Virus record (IMG/VR): IMGVR_UViG_3300050343_000230
Span: 1-64,000 of that record
DNA from: a virus
Length of the DNA: 64,000 bases
Direction: 5' to 3' (one strand)
Part shown: positions 5,938 through 19,116 of the stretch, piece by piece
Position numbering within the stretch: position 1 is the first letter of the stretch
Layout: every line of letters starts with the position of its first letter
The notes under the pieces: generated by a model
Told to the model about the DNA's origin: nothing
The model's database searches: none
The model's input: only the letters and a program-made list of their open reading frames with translations
Program-made: the position numbers and the translations under genes

Positions 5938-6867
5938 ATGATGTATGGAACATATGGTGGAGGTGTTCCCGGAGCACCCGGTAATATGGGTGGAGTAGGC
6001 GCTCCTGTTTCATTTGCTGGCGGTGTCTCACCTTCAGTGCGCGTTAGTGGTGGTAACAACCCCACAAGTGTTGCAGTTCCAGACATCAGCCTTGGTGGCG
6101 GCGGTAACTTAAACAATGCTGGGATGATGGAACGTGCACGAGCCATGACGGGACAGGCTCGGAACATGGCGGACAGCATGCACACTCGTGTCGTTAATAA
6201 CTCACAACGTGGTGGTTTGTTCCCTAGAGGTGCCTTACTTGGCGGTGCCCTGATGGGTGGAATCGTGCCAGGCGCTCAAGCTATTCAACGAGGTGATGCC
6301 GTAGAAGGTGTAGCAACTATTGGTGCTACTGCTGGTATTGCTGCTGGTGTTGGTAAAGCTGCTCAGAGGATAAACAATCCTTACGCCAAGATCGGAGCAA
6401 TGGCTGTAGGCGGTCTGCTTTCAGGTGGTATTGGCCAAGGCGTTGGTCAGCTCGCAGAAGATGTTGTTGGTGGTATTACCGGCAAAGGATCTAGCGAAGG
6501 AGCAGGTCGCAAGCGGAATGTTAAGGATGCAAGGAACCAAGCTGAGGTAATGGAAATCCTTGGCGGTGCAGCAATGCAACCTTATGTTCAAGCAAATATT
6601 GAACTTAGTGAAGCTGCAATGAATCAGCGCATTCTTGAAGCCCAAAGGATGCTGCCAACAATTAACCGGATGAAGAACGCTGATTTGGTTCGTCAGCAAG
6701 CTATTAATGCTTCTAACACCCAAAACTATATGGCGATGGGTACTGTTGCTACTGCTGGCAAACTTGCACTAGGTGCTCAAGAACAAGCCGGTGCAAACCT
6801 TCGCACTGCAATGACTGCTAATCCTTATGCGAATAGCACCATGCAGGCTCCTTCCATTAGCTACTGA
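5938..6867 (+). CDS. Gly-rich putative ejection (pilot-like) protein
   Basis: 309 aa; glycine-zipper-like segments then Q/A-rich helical C-terminus; TAGAAT at 5899-5904. Confidence 0.6.
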   Translation: MMYGTYGGGVPGAPGNMGGVGAPVSFAGGVSPSVRVSGGNNPTSVAVPDISLGGGGNLNNAGMMERARAMTGQARNMADSMHTRVVNNSQRGGLFPRGALLGGALMGGIVPGAQAIQRGDAVEGVATIGATAGIAAGVGKAAQRINNPYAKIGAMAVGGLLSGGIGQGVGQLAEDVVGGITGKGSSEGAGRKRNVKDARNQAEVMEILGGAAMQPYVQANIELSEAAMNQRILEAQRMLPTINRMKNADLVRQQAINASNTQNYMAMGTVATAGKLALGAQEQAGANLRTAMTANPYANSTMQAPSISY

Positions 6868-6872
6868 GTAAG

Positions 6873-7463
6873 ATGACACGTATTTCCGCTTACGCTTCTC
6901 CTTTGATAGGCCAAACTGTTGGCGGAGATATTGACCCTGACATCTTGGCGCGAGCTTCTTTGATTCAAAAAGGGCAAGAGAATGGGTTAATTCCAGAGAT
7001 GGCAACCCCTGGCAATCCTGTTGCTGTTGAAATTCAACCTTTTCAGACTTATCTAAACAGTACCCAATTAGATACTGGATTGGATGCTACACCTTCTGGT
7101 AGTGATCTTCCTGCTACTCCTGAAAGTCCCAAGCCGATGAGCGAGCTGGACTTTTTTGAAAGACTACTGAAGACTCAAACAGATGCAAAGATGTATGAAA
7201 ATAGCCCAGAAGTAATGAAGGCAAAAACTGATGAAGCCTTAAGACTGATGAATGCAATTGGTGATCGTCAACAGAAATATGGTTGGCAGTCACAACTGGT
7301 TGGCTTTGCTTTAAATAAACTGCCAGACATGCTGTCTGCTGGGGCACGTAATCGTAATTACTACTTAGATCAACTAGTAAGTAAAGGTCCAGCAATTAGC
7401 CAAGCCGCTTCAAGTATGTATACAGGAGCAGGAACTGGTAATTACTTTGGCAGAGGAGTCTAG
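6873..7463 (+). CDS. Hypothetical virion-module protein
   Basis: 196-aa ORF in a tightly packed operon. Confidence 0.7.
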   Translation: MTRISAYASPLIGQTVGGDIDPDILARASLIQKGQENGLIPEMATPGNPVAVEIQPFQTYLNSTQLDTGLDATPSGSDLPATPESPKPMSELDFFERLLKTQTDAKMYENSPEVMKAKTDEALRLMNAIGDRQQKYGWQSQLVGFALNKLPDMLSAGARNRNYYLDQLVSKGPAISQAASSMYTGAGTGNYFGRGV

Positions 7464-10697: not shown

Positions 10698-12224
10698 GTG
10701 CCTTCTCATCTTCACTTAGCTTATCGGCGTAATGCAAAAGCTGCTGCAGCAAACCATCGCATACGCAAGAGTGATCAAGACGAGATTTACGAAAGAGCAA
10801 GAGAAGACTTTGGTTTTTTCTGTGAGTACGTAGCTGATAAAGCTCCAGCAGAACATCACAAGCACTGGAACCAACAGTTAGTTACAAACCAGAACAGCTC
10901 ATGTCTAACAAAAATTGCTGGACCCAATATTGACCTATTGGGGCCGCGTGGATCAGCCAAGAGCACTGTCCTAGGTTTATATACTGCCTGGGCCATTGGT
11001 GTACATACCACAGCCAAAAAGCCCCTACAAATTCTTTACCTCAGTTATACAGTTGATATTGCAAGATCCAAATCTGCCACGATCAAACGGATCATCGAAT
11101 CTAAAAAATATCAGAATGTATTCCCTACCGTTAAGCTGCTCAAAAACGTTACTAGCAACGAGTACTGGTCCATCGACCACAAGTTTGCTGGTATTGATAC
11201 AACTGGTGAAGAACAGTTTACTTTATGTGCCGCTGGCCTTAAAGGATCGGTGACTTCAAAACGATCTCATCTTGTCATCATTGATGACCCTGTGAAATCT
11301 GCAGCAGATATTGGCAACCCAGACATCCGCAAGATGATGCAGGATAACTGGAATGCAGTGATTGCTCCCACGATGTTTGAAGGCGGCCGTGCGATATGCT
11401 TGGGGACACGATTCCGTCATGACGATATACATGCGACAACGTTCTGCCAACAGAACAATTGGATGCAGATCGTCCTATCAGCGATCTTAAATAACGAGGA
11501 GACAGGCGAAGAAGAGTCATACTGGCCGGACATGTGGTCACTAGAGTACCTAAAAGAAAAGAAAAGGCAAGCACCAATTGCATTCTCTTTCCAGTACATG
11601 AATCAAATTGTCAGACAGAATGAACTGTCCTTGGCACCTGAGTTACTGGTTAAAGCAGAGATTGCAACAGAATTTGATTGCCTTGGTATTGGTGTTGACT
11701 TGTCCGCTGGCATTAAAGAGAAGAACGATTACACCGTTATGGTCTTAGGAGGAAAAATTGGTAACAAGATTCATATCATTGACTATCGAAGAATTCGTGT
11801 CATGGGTAACCTAGAGAAACTTGATGCAATGAAAGAGCTTCTTAATGACTGGTCAATCGTTGGCCGTCAAGATGACGGCTTATACTTTCCTACTTTCTCT
11901 ACATGTGACATCTGGTCTGAAGCAGTTCAGTATCAAGCATCACTAGAAGCAGATTTCAAACGTGTTTGTTTAGAGCAAGAAGATCTTTACAATCTTATTT
12001 GGCATCCAGTTAAAGGATTCCGTGCAGATAAGCTTGCACGTTTCAGAGGTATAATGGGTATGTTCGAAGACCACAAAATCATTTTTAATCGTTACCGTAA
12101 TTTCACTACTATGTTCGAAGAGCTTACTAACTTTGGTGTTAGCTCTCATGACGACTGCGTGGATGCCTTGGTATGGCTTGTTAATGGTTTAATGAAACGA
12201 GGAAAACTCCAGGTAGATTATTAA
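10698..12224 (+). CDS. terL: Terminase large subunit
   Basis: Walker A-like GPRGSAKS, Walker B LVIIDDP, GTRF coupling motif, nuclease GVDLS and HDDCVDAL motifs. Confidence 0.93.
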   Translation: MPSHLHLAYRRNAKAAAANHRIRKSDQDEIYERAREDFGFFCEYVADKAPAEHHKHWNQQLVTNQNSSCLTKIAGPNIDLLGPRGSAKSTVLGLYTAWAIGVHTTAKKPLQILYLSYTVDIARSKSATIKRIIESKKYQNVFPTVKLLKNVTSNEYWSIDHKFAGIDTTGEEQFTLCAAGLKGSVTSKRSHLVIIDDPVKSAADIGNPDIRKMMQDNWNAVIAPTMFEGGRAICLGTRFRHDDIHATTFCQQNNWMQIVLSAILNNEETGEEESYWPDMWSLEYLKEKKRQAPIAFSFQYMNQIVRQNELSLAPELLVKAEIATEFDCLGIGVDLSAGIKEKNDYTVMVLGGKIGNKIHIIDYRRIRVMGNLEKLDAMKELLNDWSIVGRQDDGLYFPTFSTCDIWSEAVQYQASLEADFKRVCLEQEDLYNLIWHPVKGFRADKLARFRGIMGMFEDHKIIFNRYRNFTTMFEELTNFGVSSHDDCVDALVWLVNGLMKRGKLQVDY

Positions 12225-12642: not shown

Positions 12643-13245
12643 ATGATTGGTGGATTAGCAGGAAGAGCACTTTCCACTATAGGCAACTCAGGGGGTTTAG
12701 CTTCTCAGTACCCACTTGGCCTTGCTGGTCAAATTGGTGGCCTTAATAATCAGATCTCTCCTCAAGCAGAAGGCGGTAATTTCTTTGGGAGCGGTACTTC
12801 TTTTGGGGTAGGTGGATTGGTAGGACAGCTGCTTCCTCCTATTGACCCTGCAAAGCATCGTGATGTAATGGGAAGAGAAAGAAAACGAGGGAGGATACAA
12901 GACTTAATTAACGATCCAGCAGCTACTCCAGGAGAGGTACGTAATGGCGAAGGGTTTTTAGGAACGACCCTTCCACGTTTAGCGCAAGGTTTACCTAATG
13001 GAGAGCAAGGACCATCACAAGGGCCTAACACTCCAGAAGGGCCTAACACTCCAGTAAAATATTATCCAGGTATGGGCTACGGACCAGTTGGCCCAATGGG
13101 TGGCGGGTTACCTCCTACACCAATGGCTAGTATGTATGGCGGTCCTCAGATGGGACAAGCAATGCCTCAAATGGGACAAGTAGGTGGCTTACTTGGTAAT
13201 GCCAATTTCTTTAATGATCCAATGACTATCAAACGCGTAAGCTGA
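12643..13245 (+). CDS. Gly/Pro/Met-rich hypothetical virion-module protein
   Basis: 200 aa, low complexity, 18-nt tandem duplication encoding GPNTP x2; TAGAAT at 12617-12622. Confidence 0.6.
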   Translation: MIGGLAGRALSTIGNSGGLASQYPLGLAGQIGGLNNQISPQAEGGNFFGSGTSFGVGGLVGQLLPPIDPAKHRDVMGRERKRGRIQDLINDPAATPGEVRNGEGFLGTTLPRLAQGLPNGEQGPSQGPNTPEGPNTPVKYYPGMGYGPVGPMGGGLPPTPMASMYGGPQMGQAMPQMGQVGGLLGNANFFNDPMTIKRVS

Positions 13246-13532
13246 TGGCACAAGACGACTCAAAATATACCAAGCCAGGAGTTCGTGAACGGATTAAAAA
13301 CCGTGTCATGAAAGGAACTAAAGGTGGTAAAGCCGGTCAGTGGTCTGCGCGTAAAGCACAGCTCGTAGCTTCCGAGTACAAGAAAGCTGGTGGCGGGTAC
13401 AAAGGTGGAGAAGGAAAGAAGCAAAAATCTTTAAAGAAATGGGGCAAAGAGGATTGGCAGACCAAAGATCAATATGAAAAAGGTAGAAAAGCTGCTACTG
13501 CAGCTAAAAAAGCTAAGGACAAAAGATCATGA
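13245..13532 (+). CDS. Basic protein, N-terminal half of a DUF5872-like protein
   Basis: KYTKP..RERIK...GGKAGQWSARKAQL.A.EYKK.GGGY...QKSLKKW...WQTK motif. Confidence 0.7.
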   Translation: MAQDDSKYTKPGVRERIKNRVMKGTKGGKAGQWSARKAQLVASEYKKAGGGYKGGEGKKQKSLKKWGKEDWQTKDQYEKGRKAATAAKKAKDKRS

Positions 13533-13651
13533 AACAAGCTAAAAAAGATTTACAGAAAATCTCCAAACAGTTAAAAGGCAGTGCCAAGATGCATGCCAGC
13601 CAAGCTAAAAAAATTGACAAGCTTGCCGGTAAATACATGGAGAAAAAATAA
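13529..13651 (+). CDS. Small Lys-rich protein (40 aa, not in ORF track)
   Basis: MKQAKKDLQKISKQLKGSAKMHASQAKKIDKLAGKYMEKK; coupled on both sides (ATGA, TAATG). Confidence 0.65.
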   Translation: MKQAKKDLQKISKQLKGSAKMHASQAKKIDKLAGKYMEKK

Positions 13652-14349
13652 TGGATTTAGCAGGTAAATTGATGGGCGGACTTAAATCTGTTGCAGGAGC
13701 AGGTTTAAATTTATTGCCAGACAGAATCAATTTGTTTGGTCGTTACTTGACAGGTGTCGGTAATTCTAATTTGCAATTAGATCGTTCTACTGAACAATCC
13801 TTAATCAATGCAACTGAAAAACCTCCTGTCTCTATGGGAATGGTACGTAGTTGGCCAGATCAAAGAACTGCAATAGAAGGTGATCTTTCTAAAAGCAAGA
13901 TGGTAGAAAGCCCAGTGGTTGCAGCAGGCCCAGGCATTCCAACCTCTGGTCCAACGATGCCATATATGAGTGGTGATCAAGTAGCTTCTCAAACACTCGG
14001 ACGCTTTAATGCAGAAGTGACTCCAACCACTGTTCGTGTTAAAGATACTTATGACATGGTCAATGAATCAGAAGATCCTGATTTAGTTAGCGGTCAATTC
14101 CAACCAGGCAAAGCGTATAGAACTTTGCAAGGAGCTTTTGATCCGACAAAAATTTATCATCCAAGGATTGATCAACTACAAGATATCAGCCATTTACTAA
14201 AACCTGAAGAAAAAGATTTTGGTGCTTACATGCGCGAGGTGGGTAAAGGCACAACAAGAAGTCCCTTAACAGATGTGGCTCGTGCTGCCATGTACGCATT
14301 ACCTGTTCAATTTCAACCGTATGAAATTGATTACACGATTCAACGCTAA
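13651..14349 (+). CDS. Hypothetical protein
   Basis: 232 aa, coupled start. Confidence 0.7.
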   Translation: MDLAGKLMGGLKSVAGAGLNLLPDRINLFGRYLTGVGNSNLQLDRSTEQSLINATEKPPVSMGMVRSWPDQRTAIEGDLSKSKMVESPVVAAGPGIPTSGPTMPYMSGDQVASQTLGRFNAEVTPTTVRVKDTYDMVNESEDPDLVSGQFQPGKAYRTLQGAFDPTKIYHPRIDQLQDISHLLKPEEKDFGAYMREVGKGTTRSPLTDVARAAMYALPVQFQPYEIDYTIQR

Positions 14350-14351
14350 CC

Positions 14352-14561
14352 ATGGCAGACAAAGCAATCCAATCTGACGGTACGACCAAACGTTACCTCC
14401 CCAAGAAAGCATGGGCTTCTCTTTCCAAAGAAGAAAGGGAAGATACTGACCGCAAGAAACGAGAGGGATCTCGTAAAGGAAAACAATTTGTCGGTAACAC
14501 AGAGAAAGCAAAGAAAGCTGGTAAAGCTGCTAGGATGTATAAAAGTAAGGCTGGTAAATAA
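14352..14561 (+). CDS. Basic protein, C-terminal half of a DUF5872-like protein
   Basis: RYLPKKAW..LS.EE...TDRKKREGS.KGKQFV.NT motif. Confidence 0.7.
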   Translation: MADKAIQSDGTTKRYLPKKAWASLSKEEREDTDRKKREGSRKGKQFVGNTEKAKKAGKAARMYKSKAGK

Positions 14562-16942
14562 TGGCCGGAACGAGCGCCCGTCTAAGAGAAATCGTTAACT
14601 CATACATCGAAAGAGATGGTAATGAGTACGTTGACACGGGCATTGTCGCAGGTCATATCGCTCAGATGAAGCTCTTTGGTATCCGCCAAGGTGTTGAGTT
14701 CTTCCCTTCACAAGATAACTTCGGGAATCAGCGAAAAGATTTTATCGATAAAGTAATTAAATACAACAAGCTAGACACAAGACTTGATTCGATATGGGAT
14801 TATTTTCTTTGTGATGGAAAAGGGCTTTTCTACATCAGACCTACTAAAAATAATTATCGTCTCTATTATTTCCGTAGCCATGAGTATCGCTCTTATTACA
14901 ACGTAGATGGTGAATTAGAAGAAGTCGTAATCATCTACAGCTATAAAGTCAAGACTGGAAAAGGAGGCATTTACCAGGACATTGGTTTGTCCGGACTAAG
15001 TGGTGCCACTGATCATGAAAATCCTGGACAGAAGCGTTACATCCGTTTGTCAATCAAACCTGATGTTATCGAAGAAACTCACTCAGAAGGTGAAATTTCA
15101 TTTGACAATGTCAACATGATGACCCCTGGCAAAACCCAGAAATTTGCCAATGAGCTTTTATATATTCCTTGCGTTGAGATCTTCAACAACCCCAAGGGCT
15201 TCTCCATGGAAGGCAGTGGGGAATTTGACCAATTAGCCAACCACATCATTACGCATGATGAGTTGGTACGCAACATGAAAAAGAACTTGCAGTTCTTTGG
15301 TAATCCTACGTTGCTTTCTTCCCGTCCCAAGACGGATCTGATGGAGCCAGGGGGAGGTGGGGATGGATCTGCGCAACGTCCCTCTATTGCTGCAAACTCA
15401 GGTTTCAATAGTATGTCGCCAATGTCGCGATCTACCTTTAAACAAGATCCTATTCAACGTGGTGTTGACGGACAACTCCGTGTGCCACGTGTTATTGCCA
15501 ACCTTGAGCCTAACGATCGAGTTGGTTATATTGTTCCTGATGCAATTTCAGGTGACCAGAATGCATTTGTACGACAATATAGAGAAGAGATTCGTACAGC
15601 CCTTGGAGGTGTAGATGAACTTTCAATCTCCGCAGGTGTTACTGCGACCGAATATAAAAGTTTGTTTGGTCGTGTTGCAGCCACCAGCAAAAAGAAAGCG
15701 AATTCGATTTATACGCATGGGCTCTGCCGATGCATGGAACTAATCATTTTTCAAGAGGAACAACTCTTCAAAGATACATTGGCAGCTGCTGCACAATTTG
15801 AAAAACCAATCACGCCTTCGCCAGGAAGTGGTCCAGAAGAAATGCAGTTTTATCGCGAGGCGATGGAAGAATATGACCAGCGTGTAAATCAACTTATGAT
15901 GGCATGCGTTAAAGCACAGATGATTCCACCTGGTGTTAGGGGACTAATACCAGATGGAGACATTACAATGCTTTGGCGTTGGCTTGGGCCGGTTTATGAA
16001 GAATCGACTCAAGATATCCTGAACAATTCAATTGTTGTAAGAAACTTACAAGAATTGGGTGTTGATAGCATAGAAGCACTGAAATATCTTTTCCCTTCAA
16101 AAACAGAAGAGGAAAGAGCGGAGATGCTTTCAGGATTTCCGTTCAGGATGGTTAACGAGTTACAAGGTGCTTACAACCAATTCTCTCGTTTGATAGGGGG
16201 CATGATGCAGACCCCTCATCCCCAATCTCCAGATTTGCCTATGGCAGCTGACCCGAGATTGGACCTTACTCCATATCTGTATCGAACACTAGAAGCATTA
16301 CAAAAGGAGATGAGTTATGCAGGACGCTTCCGTCCAATCGATCCCACAGATGAGCCAGCCATCCGTGGCCCCGAGCAGTTACGTGGCGGCAGCACCGGCA
16401 GCTCCGGTAGCGGCTCCTCAGGCAGCCCCGGCTCAGGTGGGGACGTACTTCCCCCAGGCGGTGCCCCAGGCGGCTCCAGCCTCGACTACCAGTTACCAAT
16501 CAAACCCGTCAGCATTCGTCCCCCCTTCCCAGGGCCAGGCGGATCAGGGGAACCCATGGGAATCGGCCTTCAACAAGGTGGTGAACCTACTGGGCAGTCC
16601 GGTGCAATCCCCGTTCCAGGGAGCACCATCACAGGCCCCGGTTCAGACTCCGGGTCAGTATACCCCGGCCAATTGGGGTCAAACAGCATCGACCCAACCC
16701 GACGCATCAACGAGCTGGGGTCAGCAGACCTCGCAAACAAGCCCGACCTCATACAGCAGCTCTTCCCAAACTTCATCGATCAACTCCTTAGCCGACGTGG
16801 CGGATCTCCTTCAGTGGAGTCCGGAGAGTCAGATGGTAGTGGCGAACTACGGGACGGAAGCGCCAGCGATTCTAAACCAGTACGCTCTAAACCTGGAAGG
16901 AATGCTGGACAGCGCGGTCGCGTGGGGAAGCGAGGCAACTAA
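14561..16942 (+). CDS. Portal protein with a long C-terminal extension overlapping the scaffold gene
   Basis: 793 aa, positioned between terL and scaffold/capsid; helical core of about 585 aa plus a Gly/Ser/Pro-rich tail. Confidence 0.75.
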   Translation: MAGTSARLREIVNSYIERDGNEYVDTGIVAGHIAQMKLFGIRQGVEFFPSQDNFGNQRKDFIDKVIKYNKLDTRLDSIWDYFLCDGKGLFYIRPTKNNYRLYYFRSHEYRSYYNVDGELEEVVIIYSYKVKTGKGGIYQDIGLSGLSGATDHENPGQKRYIRLSIKPDVIEETHSEGEISFDNVNMMTPGKTQKFANELLYIPCVEIFNNPKGFSMEGSGEFDQLANHIITHDELVRNMKKNLQFFGNPTLLSSRPKTDLMEPGGGGDGSAQRPSIAANSGFNSMSPMSRSTFKQDPIQRGVDGQLRVPRVIANLEPNDRVGYIVPDAISGDQNAFVRQYREEIRTALGGVDELSISAGVTATEYKSLFGRVAATSKKKANSIYTHGLCRCMELIIFQEEQLFKDTLAAAAQFEKPITPSPGSGPEEMQFYREAMEEYDQRVNQLMMACVKAQMIPPGVRGLIPDGDITMLWRWLGPVYEESTQDILNNSIVVRNLQELGVDSIEALKYLFPSKTEEERAEMLSGFPFRMVNELQGAYNQFSRLIGGMMQTPHPQSPDLPMAADPRLDLTPYLYRTLEALQKEMSYAGRFRPIDPTDEPAIRGPEQLRGGSTGSSGSGSSGSPGSGGDVLPPGGAPGGSSLDYQLPIKPVSIRPPFPGPGGSGEPMGIGLQQGGEPTGQSGAIPVPGSTITGPGSDSGSVYPGQLGSNSIDPTRRINELGSADLANKPDLIQQLFPNFIDQLLSRRGGSPSVESGESDGSGELRDGSASDSKPVRSKPGRNAGQRGRVGKRGN

Positions 16943-17315
16943 CACCCTGATGGGTTATGCCAACTTCTCCGTCAATGAGCATCGCGAGAATCTGGCTTAC
17001 AACGAAATTCTTACTAACCCTGACATCTTGTCGGATTACACCTTGAATTTCTTTGGTCCTCAAGGTCCATATCCAGTCTACGAATCTGAAGCAGAATTAG
17101 CTACCCCTGGTTATCCAACTCAGCAGGTATCTAACGAGCAAATGATTCCTGGCGCAAACTTCCCTGCACCTCCACAGGCTGCTGCTCCTCAAGCTCCCCA
17201 AGATTTCTGGGGTTCTTTCAAGCAACAGATGGATCAAGATCCTACGCAAGCATGGCGTGTGATCAACCAGGCTTCACCTCAGGTGATGGCTAACAAACTC
17301 TTCGTCATGGAGTGA
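16317..17315 (+). CDS. Capsid scaffolding protein (putative)
   Basis: Pro/Ala/Gln-rich 332 aa upstream of the capsid gene; AGGAG SD at 16305-16309. Confidence 0.7.
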   Translation: MQDASVQSIPQMSQPSVAPSSYVAAAPAAPVAAPQAAPAQVGTYFPQAVPQAAPASTTSYQSNPSAFVPPSQGQADQGNPWESAFNKVVNLLGSPVQSPFQGAPSQAPVQTPGQYTPANWGQTASTQPDASTSWGQQTSQTSPTSYSSSSQTSSINSLADVADLLQWSPESQMVVANYGTEAPAILNQYALNLEGMLDSAVAWGSEATNTLMGYANFSVNEHRENLAYNEILTNPDILSDYTLNFFGPQGPYPVYESEAELATPGYPTQQVSNEQMIPGANFPAPPQAAAPQAPQDFWGSFKQQMDQDPTQAWRVINQASPQVMANKLFVME

Positions 17316-17319
17316 TCCA

Positions 17320-17841
17320 ATGCGTAACGCTTTGAAATATGGTATTCCTGCGGCTGCCGGTCTCGGCGCTGCAGGTCTTGTTGCCAGTCAAGGCGGGAAT
17401 CCTGTTGAAGCCGGTGGCGCTGCTATTGCTGCTGGCTTAGGCGGTGCTGCTGGTTTAGTAGGCGCTCGTCTACTTGCGGGTAAATACAGCCCTCAATTAG
17501 TATCTAAAATCCAACGTGGTTTAGGTACAGTTGAGGATCGGCTTTCCCAGGCAAGTGCAAATCGCCCTGATGGTTCGATGAGAGCCAATGCCTTACTGGA
17601 TTTATCTAGCGCGGCAGGTAACATTGCTGATTCAGTCACTGAACGTGGCATGGCTAAAGCTACTGCTGCTGGCCTAGTTCCAGCTTCTGCTGCTACTGCT
17701 GCCCTTGGCGGCTATGGTGCAGGACAAGCAGTTGGTGCTGTTGCCCAAATGATTGGCATTGATCCAGAACTCCCTGGTTCAAGCAATACAGTTAATTCCC
17801 GATTAAACATGCAAGGTATGAACTACCTTCCCATGTATTGA
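17320..17841 (+). CDS. Ala/Gly-rich hydrophobic virion-module protein
   Basis: 173 aa with three glycine-zipper-like segments. Confidence 0.65.
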   Translation: MRNALKYGIPAAAGLGAAGLVASQGGNPVEAGGAAIAAGLGGAAGLVGARLLAGKYSPQLVSKIQRGLGTVEDRLSQASANRPDGSMRANALLDLSSAAGNIADSVTERGMAKATAAGLVPASAATAALGGYGAGQAVGAVAQMIGIDPELPGSSNTVNSRLNMQGMNYLPMY

Positions 17842-17952: not shown

Positions 17953-19116
17953 GTGTTTTTAGATAACGACTTTCCTAAGATTTTAGGTGCGGAACTATAC
18001 CGTCCGCATCCCGCTTATGTCTGTGAAATGGCTGTCGAGCCTGTAGTCGTACATGACTTCACCTCGCAGCCCGGCCAGACCGTGCAGCTGGATCGCTATA
18101 AGTTCTGGGGAACTCCTGGTACTAAGGATTCACGCGAGCGTATTGCTGACCAGACTATTGGTACAGCTAATAGCCGTAACATCACGAAGGAGAAAGTCCT
18201 CGTGGTGCTTAAGGAATACACCGGCCCTGCGGACCCAGGTGATCCTACCCAGCCTTCAACCTTTAAGATTGCTCGTGAGACCCTGGTCACCGCGCAGCGT
18301 TTGCTGCTCGACACTGGCAACTTGAACATGTTCCACCAGTCAATCGGTAGCTTGACGCTGCTTGATGACTATCGTCGTTGGCGTGACCGCGTCTTCATTG
18401 ACGAACTTGCAAAAGCAGAAGCACAAGGTGCAGCTTCTTCAAGCCAAGGCGGTTATTACTTCGCTGGTGGTAAAGGTAAAGATGGTACTGGCCGTATTTC
18501 TTATACAGCTGCTGAGTACACCGCACAAGTACAACAGTTCTCTGTTCGTACCGACCTTCTCGAAGTTGTAAAAGATCTTCGTAAGCGCAACGTACCTACA
18601 TTTGCTGATGGTCTGTATCGCTGTATTTGCGATCCTACCTTCATGATGCACTTGCGTCGTGACGAAGATTTCCGTGAGATCGCTCGCTACGCAGGCAATC
18701 CTGGACAAGGCATGTACATGGCTAACCCCATGATGCCTAACAACTCCAGTTTCTACATGGGACCACAAGCTGGTCAGGGCTACTTCCTGGCTGGTGAACC
18801 TGTGATGCCTACTGGCGTTCAGTTTGAAGGCGTTAAGTTCTTTGAGTCAACCAACTTCCCAAATAAGAGTGTAACCACCTCATTTGATGCGGGTGCTAAC
18901 TACGCTTCTGAAGAAGTTGCACAAGGTTACTTCTTCGGTCCTCAGTCTGTTGGTGTTGGTATTGGCGGTCCTAACGCACAAGTACTCATTAACAACAATG
19001 ATGACTTCTCTCGCTTTATCATCCTGATTTGGCAGCTCTATGCTGGTTTCGAGGTCTTGAACAAAGACTTCATCACTACTGCATTCAGCTACCTCTCCGA
19101 TGACGGCGTAGTCTGA
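17953..19116 (+). CDS. Major capsid protein
   Basis: 387 aa after portal and scaffold; strong SD; biased codon use; G-x-T-V-x-L-x-R-Y and GVKFFES patterns seen in HK97-fold capsids. Confidence 0.82.
   Translation: MFLDNDFPKILGAELYRPHPAYVCEMAVEPVVVHDFTSQPGQTVQLDRYKFWGTPGTKDSRERIADQTIGTANSRNITKEKVLVVLKEYTGPADPGDPTQPSTFKIARETLVTAQRLLLDTGNLNMFHQSIGSLTLLDDYRRWRDRVFIDELAKAEAQGAASSSQGGYYFAGGKGKDGTGRISYTAAEYTAQVQQFSVRTDLLEVVKDLRKRNVPTFADGLYRCICDPTFMMHLRRDEDFREIARYAGNPGQGMYMANPMMPNNSSFYMGPQAGQGYFLAGEPVMPTGVQFEGVKFFESTNFPNKSVTTSFDAGANYASEEVAQGYFFGPQSVGVGIGGPNAQVLINNNDDFSRFIILIWQLYAGFEVLNKDFITTAFSYLSDDGVV

Follow-up and report, generated by a model that had tools for sequence, protein, structure and literature searches.

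A probable ancient dual-coding overlap between the portal gene and a scaffold-like gene of an S-EIV1-like cyanophage

The locus and its two reading frames

The IMG/VR virus record IMGVR_UViG_3300050343_000230 is 77,499 nucleotides (nt) long and rated 98% complete; its first 64 kb, hereafter the window, were analysed. We describe a 626-nt stretch of the window in which the 3' end of the portal gene (open reading frame A, ORF A) and the 5' part of a gene for a scaffold-like protein (ORF B) occupy different frames of the same strand, and we consider it highly likely that the two are truly a dual-coding pair of ancient origin, situated among the head genes of an S-EIV1-like cyanophage. The only cultured relative is Synechococcus phage S-EIVl, with ~70% nucleotide identity across the stretch, which alone among 50,697 phage records has a homologous portal. 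The pair is abundant in aquatic viromes, where searches gave over 590 matches in IMG/VR and over 2,000 protein clusters. The pair consists of the following features:

14561-16942, plus strand: ORF A, portal protein of 793 amino acids (aa), with a core (residues 1 to ~590) and a tail (residues ~591-793)
16317-17315, plus strand: ORF B, scaffold-like protein of 332 aa, in the +1 frame relative to the portal
16317-16942, plus strand: dual-coding overlap of 626 nt, encoding portal residues 586-793 and ORF B residues 1-208
16304-16309, plus strand: Shine-Dalgarno sequence AAGGAG of ORF B, 7 nt 5' of the ATG and within the K-E codons of the portal

A first-pass annotation made from the letters alone had described a 626-nt overlap in the +1 frame with the portal frame open for about 208 codons, and its coordinates proved exact. 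The ribosome-binding site that it had assigned to ORF B is the AAGGAG listed above, and the ATG that follows is the first after an in-frame TGA two codons upstream. The portal frame contains no stop in the 208 codons of the overlap and 6 further stops in the 124 codons past the portal stop, as would be expected from the earlier remark that stops resume there, while the third frame has 7 stops across the overlap. The noted rise in guanine-cytosine (GC) content and in codons ending in C or G was likewise recovered, with 62% GC in the overlap versus 43% genome-wide and a third-position GC content of ORF B of 0.66 within the overlap and 0.47 downstream of it.

Conservation of the double frame in relatives

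Both frames were open in all 212 distinct overlaps (293-668 nt) of relatives with a complete portal gene, and the third frame of the same overlaps was always closed by 1-15 stops. The pattern holds in 81 of 81 loci of the window clade, whose portals share 69-99% identity (overlap 506-644 nt; 2-12 stops in the third frame), and in all 76 evaluable loci of a second clade at 46% portal identity (488-512 nt). The overlap measures 293 nt in the most distant clade, at ~27% portal identity, where the gene for the major capsid protein (MCP) lies directly 3' of ORF B, and 179 nt in a short-tail clade (loci L239-L241), where ORF B is of full length (~310 aa) and begins at the same start. A portal that stops near YAGRFRP and is followed by a variable frame, the pattern that the first-pass annotation expected if the overlap were spurious, was seen in no relative. 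DNA scans with the portals P0180 and P0131 retrieved no loci, and profile scans yielded only two clades already known.

The start of ORF B is conserved together with the frame. Its ATG lies within, or a few codons 3' of, the portal motif L-x-Y-G/A in four clades, in three of which it is built from TAT and the following G, and a 21-nt motif around the Shine-Dalgarno sequence, AAGGAGATGAGYTATGCAGGA, is invariant in the 81 loci of the window clade. When synonymous codons were shuffled with one of the two proteins held fixed, the portal frame remained open in 0.3-10% of trials per sequence and the ORF B frame in 0-5%. Because such shuffles leave the other frame open in 0-10% of trials, yet both frames are open in every one of the 212 relatives, the open double frame exceeds what chance and composition produce.

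Purifying selection on both frames

Substitutions were classed by their effect in both frames in an OLGenie-like manner (N, nonsynonymous; S, synonymous; one letter per frame), with calibration on phantom frames placed in non-overlapping parts of the same genes; the samples comprised 76 sequences of the window clade and 66 of clade 2. For the portal tail of the window clade, dNN/dSN was 0.70 (0.53-0.89) versus a phantom null of 1.40, and for ORF B, dNN/dNS was 0.31 (0.24-0.39) versus 0.85. The corresponding values in clade 2 were 0.36 (0.26-0.48) versus 1.42 for the portal tail and 0.50 (0.37-0.66) versus 0.81 for ORF B. Moreover, the rate of change that is synonymous in one of the frames is 2-8 times lower in the overlap than in the single-coding parts.

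The diversity of codon positions points in the same direction. Values for first, second and third positions of the portal frame are 0.35/0.19/0.24 in the overlap versus 0.18/0.11/0.50 in the portal core, so that the usual third-position diversity of 0.50 drops to 0.24 in the portal frame, and it drops to 0.38 in the ORF B frame. In ORF B, second positions are more variable than first ones; a normal gene shows the opposite order, and constraint on the portal predicts the order seen here. Because the ratios of nonsynonymous to synonymous change (dN/dS) lie below the phantom nulls and the codon-position diversity agrees with them, both frames are under purifying selection, and the dominant frame differs between the clades. 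The earlier proposal that selection keeps both frames open is thus borne out by conservation, codon-position diversity and dN/dS with phantom controls, which agree in two independent clades.

A sliding window showed that constraint alternates along the overlap. The ORF B helix at residues 80-93 and the ORF B motif at residues 181-203 overlie freely evolving portal sequence, the portal helix at residues 720-743 overlies Ser/Thr filler of ORF B, and at 16607-16630 both frames are constrained at once.

The portal protein and its C-terminal tail

ORF A matches phrog_20475 ('virion structural protein') up to residue 738 (E 5e-255), which is its sole family match; searches of Pfam and of PDB sequences returned no match. 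Its AlphaFold2 model, built from 56 homologues, is confident over residues 1-590, and Foldseek with this model retrieved many phage portals, including those of NF5, 80alpha, T7, SPP1 and lambda, with a probability of 1.00 and E down to 7e-11. The gene order, terminase large subunit, portal, ORF B and MCP, places ORF A at the position of the portal in a head module. Because the predicted core is confident and matches solved portals with a Foldseek probability of 1.00, ORF A is identified as the portal by predicted fold and gene context and not via a named sequence family.

Residues 600-793 are predicted to be disordered except for a strand at 689-691 and a helix at 728-744 with a predicted local distance difference test (pLDDT) score of ~72. 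The tail contains 21% Gly, 14% Ser and 13% Pro, and its last 25 residues include 8 K/R versus 1 D/E. The first-pass annotation had picked out an ordered-looking segment between linkers and an Arg-rich tip, which correspond to the helix at 728-744 and to this charged end. The tail carries the following features:

16316-16357, plus strand: portal boundary motif YAGRFRPIDPTDEP, whose TAT-G contains the ORF B ATG; top-residue frequency 0.92-0.99, local portal dN/dS 0.30
16382-16480, plus strand: portal Gly/Ser/Pro linker; portal dN/dS 0.8-1.0, indels among relatives, pLDDT below 40
16607-16630, plus strand: portal tail motif IPVPGSTI, read as SPFQGAP in ORF B; dN/dS 0.51 (portal) and 0.28 (ORF B), short predicted strand 689-691
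16718-16789, plus strand: portal tail motif GSADLANKPDLIQQLFPNFIDQLL with the predicted DLAxxPG[IL]LxQLFP[TN]F helix; portal dN/dS 0.27-0.28, ORF B Ser/Thr-rich at 0.45-0.50
16874-16939, plus strand: basic C-terminal tip of the portal tail; the K/R-rich end recurs family-wide, the sequence itself is free (dN/dS above 1)

A common plan of the tail is recognizable in portals with 27-47% core identity. A Y-G/A..P.DP boundary is followed by a Gly/Ser/Pro/Thr linker and the motif [LI]PxPG[SG]T[VI], and then by a second linker, the DLAxxPG[IL]LxQLFP[TN]F helix and a basic tip; [LI]PxPG[SG]T[VI] is still present where core identity is as low as 27-30%. Tail lengths of 90-240 aa are seen across the family, and of 70-98 aa in the most divergent group, while a nested subclade (P0180, P0189, P0202 and P0211) has tails shortened to 19-65 aa and sister lineages with 148-177 aa. 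Portals of 550-625 aa were considered as outgroups that lack a tail, in which case the tail would have been added late, and this reading was rejected. Because the tree of cores places the short-tail portals inside the long-tail ones with 100% support, their short tails are interpreted as secondary. The fit to codon usage (portal tail -0.14, ORF B -0.39, third frame -0.42) leans towards the portal frame being the older one but is confounded by the GC-rich composition.

We also considered YAGRFR at the boundary as an (L/A)AG[KR] cleavage motif. It found no support at the site, where other clades have YSGSYEP, YGKPNY and YGQQFN.

The scaffold-like protein encoded by ORF B

AlphaFold2 predicts ORF B to be disordered at residues 1-78 and 94-155, with helices at 80-93, 158-246 (including a long helix at 182-233) and 297-331 and an overall pLDDT of 56. 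Residues 1-208, encoded in the overlap, contain 16% Ala, 15% Ser, 12% Gln and 12% Pro. Three segments of the protein stand out:

16554-16595, plus strand: predicted ORF B helix 80-93 (PWESAFNKVVNLLG); top-residue frequency 0.97, dN/dS 0.11 (ORF B) and 1.28 (portal)
16857-16925, plus strand: ORF B motif EAPAILNQYALNLEGMLDSAVAW, residues 181-203, at the start of predicted helix 182-233; frequency 0.93-0.94, dN/dS 0.15-0.3 (ORF B) and above 1 (portal), pLDDT 85-92
17205-17309, plus strand: predicted C-terminal helices 297-331 of ORF B, outside the overlap; pLDDT ~90, AWR...KLFVME kept between clades

The homologues of ORF B are 232-363 aa long in all relatives, and the motifs NPWE[SA]A and EAPAILNxYAxxLE are kept between clades at 33-40% identity. 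ORF B lies between the portal and MCP genes, which is the position of a scaffold gene, and this position together with the predicted architecture suggests a scaffold-like protein. A complex prediction for portal tail residues 676-793 with ORF B residues 70-332 gave a score of 0.00 versus a mark of 0.32, a result that weighs neither for nor against an interaction.

The gene is easily misannotated. The long form is seldom called by gene callers on long contigs, and the GenBank entry of S-EIVl (KJ410740) lists the homologue (AHV82225) as a protein of 133 aa that starts after the portal stop. A frame of 325 aa is nevertheless open in S-EIVl from an ATG at position 6730 of its locus L001 (6730-7707; 59287-60264 of the record), the annotated start being at 7306 of the same locus, where it would split the confidently predicted helix 182-233.

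Alternative explanations

Four other readings of the locus were weighed. If only ORF B were functional, the portal tail would be a tolerated read-through that stays open as a Pro/Ala/Gln/Ser-rich ORF B seldom makes stops in the -1 frame. The stronger constraint on ORF B in the window clade (0.31 versus 0.70 for the portal), its third positions being the most variable, would fit such a merely tolerated portal frame, as would the predicted disorder of the tail, its very short length in some relatives and a portal frame that survives up to 10% of the synonymous shuffles of single sequences. This is nonetheless very improbable, as all 212 overlaps have an open portal frame, with tail lengths in a narrow range per clade, the portal ratios of 0.70 and 0.36 are far under the phantom null of ~1.4, the tail is the more constrained frame in clade 2, and [LI]PxPGST[VI], DLAxxPGLLxQLFPxF and the basic tip are still present in portals with 27-47% core identity. 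The converse, in which function is confined to the portal frame, the downstream gene starts past the portal stop and the +1 frame is a by-product of tail composition, has on its side the 133-aa annotation in S-EIVl, the rarity with which gene callers call the long form, and the low-complexity, predicted disordered N-terminus of ORF B. It is a shade less credible still, given that the ORF B ratios of 0.31 and 0.50 are below the nulls of 0.85 and 0.81, ORF B third positions are the most variable, both ORF B motifs are kept at 33-40% identity, the annotated start splits helix 182-233, the ATG position is kept in four clades, and shuffles leave the ORF B frame open in 0-5% of trials.

Phage structural genes often use -1 frameshifts, and the geometry of the overlap would permit one, since a -1 shift from ORF B enters the portal frame. 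A programmed frameshift could thus fuse the N-terminus of ORF B to the C-terminus of the portal tail (-1) or the portal to the C-terminus of ORF B (+1), beside or instead of two products. The ORF B frame, however, contains no conserved slippery heptamer, and any heptamer at all occurs in just 21 of 76 sequences. The heptamer CCCAAAC (16763-16769) is present in the portal frame of 58 of the 76 relatives, but its codons specify F-P-N of the tail helix, and slipping by -1 at this point leads into the third frame, which is closed, so that the heptamer is probably just a consequence of coding; no conserved slippery heptamer leading into an open shifted frame was found. Moreover, a frameshift would require neither that both frames stay open for ~200 codons nor that an ATG be preceded by a Shine-Dalgarno sequence, and we rank it below both single-frame readings. 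A sequencing or assembly error that erased a portal stop near 16330, which the first-pass annotation had advised checking, would have had only its prior plausibility for one metagenomic contig. The stretch is near-identical in runs from at least nine DNA studies, and the open frame is shared by the isolate S-EIVl and more than 200 relatives. Because two independent DNA assemblies differ from the window by substitutions only, with no indel and no stop, a lost-stop error is excluded for practical purposes.

Several observations weigh against a dual-coding pair. The relatives share ancestry, so their open frames cannot be counted as independent trials, and an obvious Shine-Dalgarno sequence is present in the window clade only, the other clades being without one. 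The portal tail is weakly constrained in the window clade (0.70), where its last ~50 residues and the Gly/Ser linker evolve freely, and the relatives with tails of 19-65 aa indicate that a long tail is not indispensable everywhere. ORF B had no match in Pfam, PHROGs (searched with the single sequence and with 41 members), PDB (profile search), Foldseek or the ESM Atlas, and none of these libraries revealed similarity to a known scaffold family or structure. Finally, both protein products are known here from their genes alone.

A model of expression and function

For a dual-coding pair, we propose that ribosomes starting at the portal ATG would read to 16942 and make the 793-aa portal, with a folded core of ~590 aa and a disordered Gly/Ser/Pro-rich tail of ~200 aa. 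Independent initiation by other ribosomes at the 16317 ATG would yield, from the +1 frame, the 332-aa scaffold-like protein, the first ~155 residues of which are predicted to be mostly disordered and are Ala/Ser/Gln/Pro-rich. This ATG would be embedded in the conserved portal sequence ..KEMSYAG.., whose K-E codons would double as the AAGGAG ribosome-binding site. Because both products are of low complexity and the islands of constraint alternate between the frames, the overlap could be tolerable, with the portal tail left free over the ORF B helices (80-93, and from 169 onward).

Contigs from RNA libraries (two oligo-dT marine libraries from one study) span 16236-17342, with nothing at 15900-16235, and three of them start at 16298/16299, 18 nt 5' of the ORF B ATG. 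These starts hint weakly that a separate 5' end or a processing site lies here and, as contigs from a single study, are not evidence of a transcript start; a sigma-70-like promoter was searched for near 16299 and not found. Together with the Shine-Dalgarno sequence of the window clade and the conserved ATG, the contig starts lead us to infer separate initiation at 16317.

The C-terminus of solved portals follows the crown, and for this reason twelve flexible tails would be expected to face the capsid interior. There, [LI]PxPGST[VI], the DLAxxPGLLxQLFPxF helix and the basic tip might recruit or tether an internal partner, such as scaffold, core or ejection proteins, and/or touch the packaged DNA. 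The first-pass annotation had suggested the tail as a tether for DNA, scaffold or ejection proteins within the prohead, which is plausible from portal topology. A broader hypothesis, which we put forward quite tentatively, is that the shared DNA may serve for more than compaction, that the portal tail could be an assembly or ejection device, in which the motifs dock scaffold, core or ejection proteins and the basic tip holds the DNA end, and that the start of ORF B in the L-x-Y-G motif could lock portal and scaffold into a unit inherited and regulated together across the lineage.

Comparison with known overlapping genes

The portal/ORF B pair has the features of overprinted genes, as different frames share DNA, both are open in diverged relatives and both are under selection. 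The nearest parallel among tailed phages is found in the overlapped and embedded spanin pairs, whose second gene, likewise in the +1 frame, is routinely missed or truncated by gene callers (PMC6139136). As in lambda Rz/Rz1, P2 lysB/lysC and T7 18.5/18.7, the downstream gene starts inside the upstream one on the same strand in the +1 frame and would be translated separately, the overlap falls on the variable C-terminal part of the upstream protein, and the second gene is mis-called, here in S-EIVl. The spanin overlaps, however, belong to the lysis cassette and cover roughly 100-200 nt, whereas the present one lies in the head module, covers 500-640 nt and about two thirds of the downstream protein, involves the portal and is kept much deeper, across a family down to ~27% identity.

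Proven viral overlaps are enriched in C, Pro and Ser, which the composition of portal/ORF B matches, and their catalogue includes one pair from a double-stranded DNA virus among 80 (Pavesi et al. 2018, PMC6195259). The overprints of small viruses, such as phiX174 A/B/K and D/E, resemble the present pair in out-of-frame dual coding, disorder-prone low-complexity products and suppressed synonymous change, but they belong to tiny genomes under strong size pressure, whereas here two core morphogenetic genes of a 77.5-kb genome are concerned. Nested head genes are known from lambda C/Nu3, Mu I/Z and the P2-type protease-scaffold fusions, all of them in frame. The lambda C/Nu3-type nests are alike in that a head gene next to the portal shares its DNA with a scaffold-type protein made by internal initiation, which here would apply to ORF B; they differ in using the same frame and the same residues, while portal and ORF B are unrelated sequences in different frames. 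A long extension past the crown of the portal that should point into the interior of the capsid is shared with phage P22, where the gp1 barrel is an ordered helical tube formed by the C-terminal extension of the portal. The present tail, in contrast, is predicted to be disordered, with short linear motifs and a basic tip, and shares its DNA with another gene.

Our literature searches found no description of the portal/ORF B overlap, which is unusually long and old for a tailed phage. Long out-of-frame overlaps are typical of tiny viruses and of spanins and are unexpected between core head genes of a 77-kb tailed phage. The overlap also has a bearing on annotation, since ORF B of the only isolate is cut short to 133 aa and the long form is suppressed by standard gene callers. 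For the evolution of overlapping genes it provides a clean natural case of two regions, both predicted to be disordered, that share DNA with alternating constraint, and for phage assembly it draws attention to a portal tail that is conserved and carries short linear motifs.

Neighbouring genes of the head module

The head genes that flank the pair were assigned as follows:

10698-12224, plus strand: terminase large subunit, Pfam Terminase_6C and phrog_38 (E 9e-77)
17953-19116, plus strand: major capsid protein, phrog_1357 major head protein (E 2e-16)

An ORF of 173 aa separates ORF B from the MCP gene in the window, and no prohead protease was recognized among the neighbouring genes. The head module of locus L242 (1927-6734), which represents the most divergent relative, is very compact, with the terminase, a portal of 571 aa, an overlapping +1 ORF of 232 aa and the capsid gene in succession; a profile comparison of this ORF B with that of the window was not significant.

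The interval between terminase and portal (12643-14561) holds a Gly/Pro/Met-rich ORF of 200 aa and an ORF of 232 aa without a family, in addition to two small Lys-rich ORFs at 13245-13532 (phrog_17747) and 14352-14561 (phrog_14910), both belonging to families of unknown function. The ORFs of this interval may encode internal or DNA-associated head proteins. The terminase of S-EIVl (L001:1523-4063) is 846 aa long and matches its profile in two pieces (24-201 and 532-841), while that of the window has 508 aa and matches in one piece; the S-EIVl protein thus seems to be interrupted by an insertion of ~330 aa that may be an intein.

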